A stretch of 64,000 nt of DNA, taken from the NCBI RefSeq assembly GCF_003018255.1, contig NZ_CP027440.1. One strand, written 5' to 3'. A program made the translations under genes and the position numbers. The notes beneath the pieces were generated by a model. It had not been told where the DNA came from. It made no database searches and worked only from the letters and a program-made list of their open reading frames with translations. The stretch comes from Escherichia coli (GTDB lineage Bacteria > Pseudomonadota > Gammaproteobacteria > Enterobacterales > Enterobacteriaceae). Positions 1,692 to 2,246 of this stretch are shown here, in pieces (position 1 is the stretch's first letter; the number at the start of each line of letters is the position of its first letter).

Positions 1692-2246
1692 ATGGGCAAA
1701 TATATTCGTCCCTTATCCGATGCGGTATTTACCATCGCATCTGATGACCTGTGGATCGAGAGTTTAGCGATCCAACAATTACACACCACGGCAAATTTAC
1801 CCAACATGCAGCGCGTTGTGGGGATGCCAGATTTACATCCCGGACGCGGCTACCCGATTGGCGCAGCGTTCTTCTCTGTTGGTCGTTTTTACCCGGCAAG
1901 ACGTCGCGGTAACGGTGCTGGAAACAGAAACGGGCCGCTACTCTGACACGCTGCGTTCGGCGCTGATTTCTCTGGATGGCGATAATGCATGGGCATTAAG
2001 CGAAAGTTGGTGCGGCACTATTCAGTGTATTTGTCCGAGTCCGTATCGGCCTCATCATGGGCGCAAAAACTGGTTTCTGGGCATGCTAACAAGCGGCTGG
2101 CGCGATTGCTGATTGCCTGGAAGCTGGAACAACAGCAACAGGAAAATAGCGCGGCGCTGAAATCGCAGCGGCGAATGTTCCATCACCAGATTGAACGTGG
2201 CAACCCGCGACGAACGTTCACAGGGATGGCTTTTATCGAAGGATAA
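1692..2246 (+). pseudogene. prfH: Degraded RtcB-like / PrfH (release-factor homologue) module; fragments in different frames
   Basis: ORF 1692..1946 carries an RtcB-like motif ([17 protein letters not shown]); ORFs 1816..2112 and 1989..2246 carry PrfH-like segments in two frames, implying a frameshift. Confidence 0.6.

Follow-up and report, generated by a model that had tools for sequence, protein, structure and literature searches.

Positions 1692-2246 of the window (the whole 64-kb stretch of DNA analyzed here, from contig NZ_CP027440.1) lie in the yafP–pepD interval of the Escherichia coli chromosome. The neighborhood reads dinB (38-925), yafP (922-1374), remnants of the genes rtcB2 and prfH (1692-2246), pepD on the minus strand (2303-3760), gpt and frsA. 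The order dinB-yafP-[rtcB2'-prfH']-pepD-gpt-frsA is common to the window, to K-12 and to strain JJ2434, in which the rtcB2-prfH operon is intact. The window differs from K-12 at about 2.3% of its bases and lacks the yafN-yafO toxin-antitoxin pair that K-12 has between dinB and yafP. Nearly all complete E. coli genomes (5,425 of 5,426) present a match to positions 1380-2300, and only two of them reach 99% identity to the window over the whole locus. Strain JNE23-011 (finished genome NZ_AP045067) matches positions 1380-2300 with 100% identity, and a second isolate has the same structure. The RefSeq annotation already marks rtcB2' and prfH' of this locus as pseudogenes, rtcB2' being a partial one. 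The remnants and their surroundings consist of the following features:

1692-1898, plus strand: rtcB2 remnant, codons 1-69 (equivalent of ykfJ in K-12), recognized by its identity to intact RtcB2
1890-1898, no strand: junction of deletion 1 (1,027 bp; positions 2983-4009 of the JJ2434 locus, L003), within an imperfect 9-bp repeat, TACCCGRCA
1891-2084, plus strand: prfH remnant 1, codons 31-95, N-terminal part of the rRNA-recognition domain, aligning with PrfH residues 31-94
2081-2084, no strand: junction of deletion 2 (169 bp; positions 4196-4364 of L003 and 3706-3874 of the K-12 locus, L002), within a 4-bp repeat, GCAT
2085-2246, plus strand: prfH remnant 2, codons 152-204 and stop, offset by one base from remnant 1
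2259-2290, no strand: GC-rich hairpin located where the stops of prfH and pepD converge (fold of -25.1 kcal/mol, z=-6.9), a candidate REP-like element or bidirectional terminator

The initial annotation of this sequence had described a fragment with an RtcB ligase motif and segments of PrfH in two reading frames, and profile searches recovered both. All 69 residues encoded by the rtcB2 remnant are identical to residues 1-69 of JJ2434 RtcB2 (tblastn, E=1.5e-41). The remnant matched positions 1-69 of the NCBIfam profile NF007153 (E=5.7e-31) as well as TIGR03073 (E=8.3e-29), which are both models of release-factor-H-coupled RtcB, and its MPDLHPGRG motif was picked up by Pfam RtcB (E=4e-5). Its NF007153 score of 107.8 bits is below the curated cutoff of 407 that defines full-length membership. 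Past codon 69 the ORF stays open, though out of frame, until the stop at 1944-1946, giving a length of 84 amino acids. For prfH, the NCBIfam search was run on the exact pieces in their ancestral frames: remnant 1 (1891-2082) matched positions 31-93 of the PrfH model TIGR03072 (E=1.6e-24, 86.6 bits) and remnant 2 (2085-2243) matched positions 151-200 (E=4.3e-15, 55.8 bits), both falling below the cutoff of 166.65 bits. A Pfam search of the ORFs in the prfH frames (1816-2112 and 1989-2246) returned no match, these fragments being too short or too diluted for the RF-1 family. Remnant 2 is identical to intact PrfH at 53 of 53 residues, and the substitution W76C in remnant 1 is the sole amino-acid change relative to JJ2434 in the 186 surviving codons.

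The two sets of fragments are contiguous and co-oriented with rtcB2' upstream (1692-2246), which is the gene context of the family. What remains of prfH has lost codons 1-30 and the marks by which a PrfH would be recognized, GGQ and one uninterrupted ORF with a start of its own. Since rtcB2' has neither the full length nor the catalytic residues of RtcB2, the locus represents a pseudogene of this family and not a member of it. We searched the 64-kb window for a second, intact copy of rtcB2-prfH and found none.

The intact module

The pairing of prfH with an upstream RtcB-like gene was recognized as a conserved two-gene operon by Baranov et al. 2006 (PMC1586002), who noted a deletion of ~1,000 nt in K-12, W3110 and O157:H7 and intact genes in CFT073, UTI89 and 042. 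PrfH binds in the A site when a ribosome's 16S rRNA has been severed in the decoding center by toxins of the colicin E3 type, and it frees the nascent peptide through its GGQ motif; biochemistry and cryo-EM showed that this peptide release by E. coli PrfH allows RtcB2 to religate the 16S rRNA (Tian et al. 2022, PMC9304027). The same study assigned the GGQ domain to PrfH residues 108-161, found Q122 mutants of PrfH and the RtcB2 mutant H294N to be inactive, and termed both K-12 genes "presumably inactive" owing to the deletion. The intact operon shields strain ATCC 25922 from colicin E3, and BW25113, whose operon is truncated, is sensitive (Maviza et al. 2022, PMC9223846).

The module of ATCC 25922, CFT073 and JJ2434 (PDB 7SA4) occupies the orthologous locus and is 99% identical in protein to the window over the 186 surviving codons. 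Along its full length, JJ2434 PrfH matched chain 8 of PDB 7SA4, "Peptide chain release factor H" (E=8.7e-137). The promoter, leader and hairpin upstream of the genes are alike in the intact module and in the window. The intact module encodes a 379-aa RtcB2 and a 204-aa PrfH with an overlapping stop and start (ATGA), whereas in the window 18% of RtcB2 and 57% of PrfH are left, split over two frames and devoid of catalytic residues. The counterparts in K-12 (NC_000913.3) are annotated as the pseudogenes ykfJ (b0235) and prfH (b0236), as the initial annotation had stated. They share with the window the position between yafP and pepD, deletion 1, an upstream ERIC element and the -10 sequence TGGTAT. 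The additional 169-bp deletion in prfH, with the resulting loss of GGQ and shift in frame, is found in the window and not in K-12.

Two deletions at short repeats

The alignment to an intact pair that had been proposed as a check was conducted by comparing the yafP–pepD interval of the window, K-12 (BW2952) and the intact JJ2434, using blastn and direct comparison of the flanks, and it mapped the deletions to base resolution. Deletion 1, whose repeat copies are TACCCGGCA and TACCCGACA, fuses codon 69 of rtcB2 to codon 31 of prfH. It removed rtcB2 codons 70-379 (including the Cys metal ligand of GNDIGCGM and the catalytic His294) and the rtcB2 stop, the ATGA overlap, and prfH codons 1-30. The same junction is found in K-12, where it is identical at 37 of 37 bases. 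Deletion 2 takes out PrfH residues ~96-151 and shifts the frame by one base; GGQ corresponds to residues 120-122 of intact PrfH and lies inside the 169-bp gap. K-12 does not carry this second deletion (13 mismatches to the junction 42-mer). In total, 1,196 bp are missing from the window.

It is likely that both deletions arose by replication slippage or by illegitimate recombination at these short repeats. Deletion 1, between imperfect 9-bp repeats, took away most of rtcB2, the translationally coupled stop/start overlap and the prfH start, and deletion 2, between GCAT repeats, took away the PrfH GGQ domain and shifted the frame. The "frameshifted and truncated pair" of the initial annotation is indeed truncated and disrupted in frame, but the lesions are two microhomology deletions (1,027 and 169 bp) and not small frameshifts.

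The pieces of prfH start at 1891 and 2085, i.e., with remainders 1 and 0 modulo 3, and rtcB2' shares the frame of remnant 2. Two frames could also be expected from a programmed frameshift, as in prfB, since the paralog RF2 uses a programmed +1 frameshift. We regard this explanation as barely credible for prfH. Intact prfH is one ORF in JJ2434, and the change of frame falls exactly at the 169-bp gap relative to the 4,756 of 5,426 genomes that keep this segment. Because the gap removes the GGQ domain, a joined product would be devoid of the catalytic motif. Programmed frameshifting was rejected on the basis of this alignment, which places the frame change at a gap removing the catalytic domain.

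Frequency and history of the alleles in E. coli

The frequency of each allele was determined across the 5,426 complete E. coli genomes. Of these, 2,715 (~50%) retained the central 501 bp of rtcB2, and the architecture produced by deletion 1, defined as a single place covering 80% or more of the decayed locus, was found in 2,656-2,668 (~49%). An exact-word search for the deletion 1 junction returned at least 1,213 genomes, which is a lower bound because PCN033 has four SNPs in the 37-mer, and the architecture-based count was used instead. The junction of deletion 2 was detected in 658 genomes (12%), using a 42-mer that is seeded only by exact words spanning the junction. The four carriers of junction 2 that we inspected (the window, JNE112863, PCN033 and EC25) all carry deletion 1 as well. 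In a spread sample of 60 records, deletion 1 was found in 29, nine of them doubly deleted (555-bp form) and 20 of the K-12 form (724 bp), and the 169-bp segment was kept in all 29 rows with separate rtcB2 and prfH matches, i.e., without deletion 1. O157:H7 is of the K-12 type.

The recurrence of both junctions across genomes excludes a sequencing error. An assembly or sequencing artifact mimicking the truncation of an intact operon would require identical junctions to have been produced in hundreds to thousands of independently finished genomes, and the missing 1,196 bp are not a homopolymer slip; we found nothing specific in favor of such an artifact and give it next to no weight. The decay reading could have been overturned by an intact frame recovered through the correction of a sequencing error or by a lack of similarity to RtcB and PrfH. 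Neither was found: the junctions recur in at least 1,213 and in 658 genomes, respectively, and the similarity to both families is far above chance.

The simplest reading of these counts is a nested decay, in which ~50% of the genomes are intact in length, ~37% are of the K-12 type and ~12% are doubly deleted, intact length being no guarantee of function. The window belongs to the most decayed class; of the two deletion alleles that are common, it has the one that is further decayed. That the second deletion has built up in 12% of the genomes suggests that decay is ongoing.

Judging from their nucleotide differences, the alleles are recombination mosaics, since rtcB2' of the window is closer to JJ2434 (0 of 207 nt differ, against 9 of 207 for the doubly deleted PCN033) and the first prfH piece is closer to PCN033 (2 of 192 nt differ, against 9 of 192 for JJ2434).

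Functional state of the remnants

The anatomy of the locus, its homology, the loss of its catalytic residues and its frequency in the population are all directly observed, and we consider it almost certain that the region is left over from the rtcB2-prfH operon of the E. coli chromosome and is non-functional. The decay of an RNA-repair and ribosome-rescue module, as originally proposed, is supported, with catalytic residues lost and the window beyond the state of K-12. Both ligase and release-factor functions are probably lost completely in this strain, because K-12, which carries the first deletion only, is already null and the window is more damaged. Peptide release on ribosomes with cleaved 16S rRNA would be expected to be absent for the PrfH of the window.

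The remnants have no internal stops in their ancestral frames and present few non-synonymous differences from intact alleles. These open frames could hint at residual constraint, and a recent origin combined with recombination would explain them as well.

The remnants might alternatively still be useful, the 84-aa product (RtcB2 residues 1-69 and its tail) or the C-terminal PrfH fragment being maintained under selection as a regulator or small protein. The ORF at 1692-1946 does retain its native start and its upstream leader, rtcB2' is identical in nucleotide sequence to JJ2434 with only synonymous changes relative to K-12, and 4-azaleucine is reported to induce the ykfJ transcript of K-12 (PMC3516279, citing Morita 2006). 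Against this, every catalytic determinant is gone, PCN033 has accumulated three non-synonymous changes in the same 69 codons while carrying the same deletions, and the second deletion has reached 12% of the genomes. In addition, knockouts of the K-12 remnants showed no colicin phenotype (PMC9223846), and the K-12 PrfH fragment was reported to go into inclusion bodies upon expression (reviewer comment, PMC1586002). A selected residual role is therefore very improbable, and we retain the interpretation of a non-functional remnant. The reported induction of ykfJ nevertheless suggests that the locus is probably still transcribed.

A conserved leader upstream of the operon

The region between yafP and the rtcB2 start contains the following features:

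1382-1410, plus strand: putative sigma-70 promoter, with -35 TTGCAA (1382-1387), a 17-nt spacer and -10 TGGTAT (1405-1410)
1439-1445 and 1452-1496, plus strand: Shine-Dalgarno sequence AAGGAGG (1439-1445) and 15-codon leader ORF MTNPLSMTLCRPFQD (1452-1496, stop 1497-1499), identified by cross-genus conservation
1480-1529, plus strand: conserved RNA hairpin, GCAGAC (1480-1485)/GTCTGC (1524-1529), with inner CAGG (1491-1494)/CCTG (1515-1518)
1530-1536, plus strand: segment D, CATTTCC, proposed partner of segment E
1547-1675, no strand: ERIC element (enterobacterial repetitive intergenic consensus), inserted after the leader hairpin and before the rtcB2 start
1682-1688, plus strand: segment E, GGAATGA (consensus GGAWTGG), directly preceding the rtcB2 ATG

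We infer that 1382-1410 is the promoter of the leader-rtcB2-prfH transcript from its cross-genus conservation, which is the basis of this assignment: inspection by eye showed the pattern TTGCnn-N17-TAnnAT upstream of the leader, at a matching position, in most genera examined. A consensus scan of 1300-2320 detected no sigma-70 site and a sole terminator-like match at chance level. All six E. coli loci examined that carry the deletion have TGGTAT as their -10 sequence and all five intact Escherichia loci have TAGTAT, a small and non-independent sample, and all other genera examined have A at this second position. By exact-word query, the G allele is present in at least 1,609 genomes, a lower bound because of neighboring SNPs.

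The leader ORF is invariant in four E. coli alleles (the window, K-12, JJ2434 and PCN033), and one further Escherichia locus presents a single substitution. The MG1655 annotation has no gene here. Loci of rtcB2 from other genera were gathered by protein search and contig look-ups, a contig scan with a single protein as query yielding eight loci. They included Salmonella, Citrobacter, two Klebsiella species, an Enterobacteriaceae MAG, Kosakonia, Cronobacter, Entomohabitans, Intestinirhabdus, Limnobaculum, Pragia, Providencia, Proteus, Pseudomonas sp. and P. aeruginosa. A comparable leader ORF with the same ribosome-binding context was found upstream of rtcB2 in every locus examined. These ORFs are 13-15 codons long, with a variable N-terminal half, a conserved L-C-(R/G) core and a stop four codons past the Cys.

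The hairpin at 1480-1529 overlaps the 3' end of the leader ORF, whose conserved core forms its 5' arm, and it was predicted by RNAalifold on a 15-genus alignment. Its helix 1 is paired in 96.7% of cases, with compensatory changes in three of six pairs. For the hairpin and the second proposed helix counted together, 90% of the cells are paired and seven pairs present compensatory changes. This count of covarying pairs was not reached in any of 500 shuffles, and pairing fell to 18-47% when the partners were slid. In the second proposed helix, downstream of the hairpin, segment D may pair with segment E, a proposal with moderate support: this helix, numbered 3, is 84% paired, two pairs have changed on both sides, and the position of the bulge differs between genera. 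Segment E is probably the ribosome-binding region of rtcB2; in the window it carries a G to A change at 1688. The sequence ATGGAWTGGTAYATGGGCAA upstream of rtcB2 is conserved in most of the aligned genera, with Providencia and Pseudomonas diverging. An alternative pairing of the leader's own ribosome-binding region CUGCAAAG with the leader core CUUUGCAG would involve invariant columns, which show no covariation and speak neither for nor against it.

The ORF at 1452-1499 is homologous to PA5471.1 of P. aeruginosa. The P. aeruginosa ORF that we recovered, MIQFSTLCRLRLA, is located 254 nt upstream of armZ and agrees with the published PA5471.1, described as a 13-aa peptide with Gln3 and Phe4 about 250 bp upstream (PMC13041342, PMC3516279). 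Stalled translation of PA5471.1 relieves transcription attenuation of armZ-PA5470 (PMC12057347), and attenuation by the leader has been demonstrated experimentally in Pseudomonas only (PMC12057347, PMC13041342). The operon formed by PA5471.1, armZ (PA5471, RtcB-like) and PA5470 (prfH) is homologous to rtcB2-prfH. The P. aeruginosa leader and the enterobacterial one share the ribosome-binding context GCAAAGGAGGT and the CUUUGCAG(G/A) "LCR" core, which is paired with a downstream G(G/U)CUGCC arm, and the operons have the start-codon context AUGGAUUGG...AUGGGCAA in common. The window likewise presents a short ORF with a strong ribosome-binding site and a core in common with the 13 other genera examined, P. 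aeruginosa among them, overlapped by a conserved RNA structure. The two systems also differ: the Pseudomonas leader has 13 codons, lies ~250 nt upstream and is accompanied by extra terminator structures, whereas the enterobacterial leader has 15 codons and lies ~110 nt upstream. Moreover, ArmZ of P. aeruginosa has gained an anti-MexZ role that has no counterpart in E. coli.

The element at 1547-1675 has the properties of an ERIC, or IRU, sequence (an imperfect palindrome of ~127 bp, intergenic and multicopy, with the consensus core). Its 129 nt fold as an imperfect palindrome (-54.8 kcal/mol, z=-7.3) and match the primers ERIC1R (1593-1614, two mismatches) and ERIC2 (1615-1636, one mismatch). 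A query containing the element matched a median of six places per E. coli genome. At the orthologous site, K-12 has the element, PCN033 has it with an internal deletion and JJ2434 lacks it. An Rfam search (E<=1) of window positions 1-6000 identified no known RNA family and returned only a sub-threshold, ERIC-like match to V_AS5. The G change in the -10 sequence and the full ERIC insertion are signs of decay or disturbance in the leader of the deletion carriers.

Discussion

Earlier publications cover the ykfJ/prfH pair, the ~1-kb deletion in it and what the intact module does, and the locus is in this sense already known. The remnants themselves add little to this record, as they correspond to the K-12 pseudogene pair plus one extra deletion. 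The three-state polymorphism that they define could serve as a marker for predicted sensitivity to colicin E3 or CdiA-CT.

The leader is the only lead from this locus that is worth pursuing. We found no description of it for E. coli in the papers on rtcB2 and prfH or by full-text search, including a search with the peptide sequence; the primary Pseudomonas papers (Morita 2006, 2009) were beyond the reach of this search and may mention it. In our reading, the promoter, ORF and hairpin in front of the dead genes have been kept as a regulatory relic. We tentatively propose, as a possibility that we do not favor over its negation, that the PA5471.1-homologous leader (1382-1536) would allow rtcB2-prfH to be induced by stalled or damaged ribosomes in intact strains, and that in the deletion carriers, which represent about half of the E. 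coli genomes, it may persist as an orphan stalling sensor. If this is true, ribosome-repair genes would be turned on by the very damage that they repair. Conserved from Pseudomonas to Escherichia and unannotated in E. coli, this leader provides a testable hypothesis for the induction of the intact operon.

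The leader region and its putative promoter

A homologue of the leader was present in all 14 genera examined, and the 15-codon ORF of the window has its P. aeruginosa homologue in PA5471.1, the leader ORF upstream of armZ-PA5470. In the intact operon, the leader is likely a ribosome-stalling attenuator. The following parts were found in the window upstream of rtcB2':

1382-1410: putative leader promoter, conserved in position
1439-1536: unannotated leader ORF of 15 codons, with a consensus ribosome-binding site and a covarying hairpin
1682-1688: segment belonging with the leader region

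At window 1405-1410, the -10 hexamer of the putative promoter reads TGGTAT wherever an E. coli locus with the deletion was examined (six of six). Five intact loci from Escherichia read TAGTAT, and the second position is A in all other genera examined. Genome-wide, G at this position was counted in at least 1,609 genomes. Possibly, TGGTAT represents a promoter-down mutation that is linked to the pseudogene allele.

The start of rtcB2' is placed differently by different annotations: the ykfJ start of MG1655 is an ATG located 12 nt upstream of the RefSeq PGAP start ATGGGC (window 1680-1694; position 2668 of locus L007). At the nucleotide level, most genera conserve the stretch ATGGAWTGGTAYATGGGCAA, yet in Pseudomonas sp. 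YH-1 it does not lie in the reading frame. This pattern makes an RNA or ribosome-binding element the likelier identity of ATGGAWTGGTAYATGGGCAA, ahead of coding sequence.

Insertions between leader and rtcB2

One further feature lies between the leader hairpin and the remnant:

1547-1675: full-length ERIC element, inserted upstream of the rtcB2' ATG at a distance of 16 nt

K-12 and Escherichia sp. (L009) have a full ERIC at the orthologous site, PCN033 and locus L011 carry a copy with an internal deletion (~55 nt remaining), and the intact locus of JJ2434 has none. A short ERIC-like insertion (AATAATTCGAGTT...GCTTGAAGTATGACGG) was also observed in Klebsiella spallanzanii (L014, ~2400-2490), after the leader hairpin and ahead of the rtcB2 start, the same relative position as the E. 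coli ERIC. It is an orthologous copy of ancient origin, or else the site is one preferred for insertion.

In Intestinirhabdus alba (L022), an insertion of ~200 nt lies inside the loop of the leader hairpin (1221-1500). Gene calling there splits the gene that follows rtcB2 into two ORFs of 144 and 61 aa (2637-3312), neither of which has an RF-1 Pfam match. These split ORFs may mean that prfH has decayed independently in a second genus.

Flanking polymorphism and mosaic divergence

Upstream of the locus, dinB and yafP overlap by ATGA (window 922-925). The toxin-antitoxin pair yafN-yafO lies between these genes in K-12 and PCN033 and is missing from the window, JJ2434 and EC25; this presence/absence polymorphism is independent of the rtcB2-prfH state. 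Downstream, one structure was found:

2259-2290: strong GC-rich hairpin in the gap separating the stop codons of the convergent genes prfH and pepD (-25 kcal/mol, z=-6.9)

It is either REP-like or a bidirectional terminator.

Within window 1692-2246, the rtcB2' fragment shows no difference from intact JJ2434 and 9 differences in 207 bases from PCN033, which carries both deletions as well. For the first piece of prfH the pattern is reversed, with 9 differences from JJ2434 and only 2 from PCN033 over 192 bases. Divergence here is mosaic, recombination having shuffled the sequences that flank the deletions.
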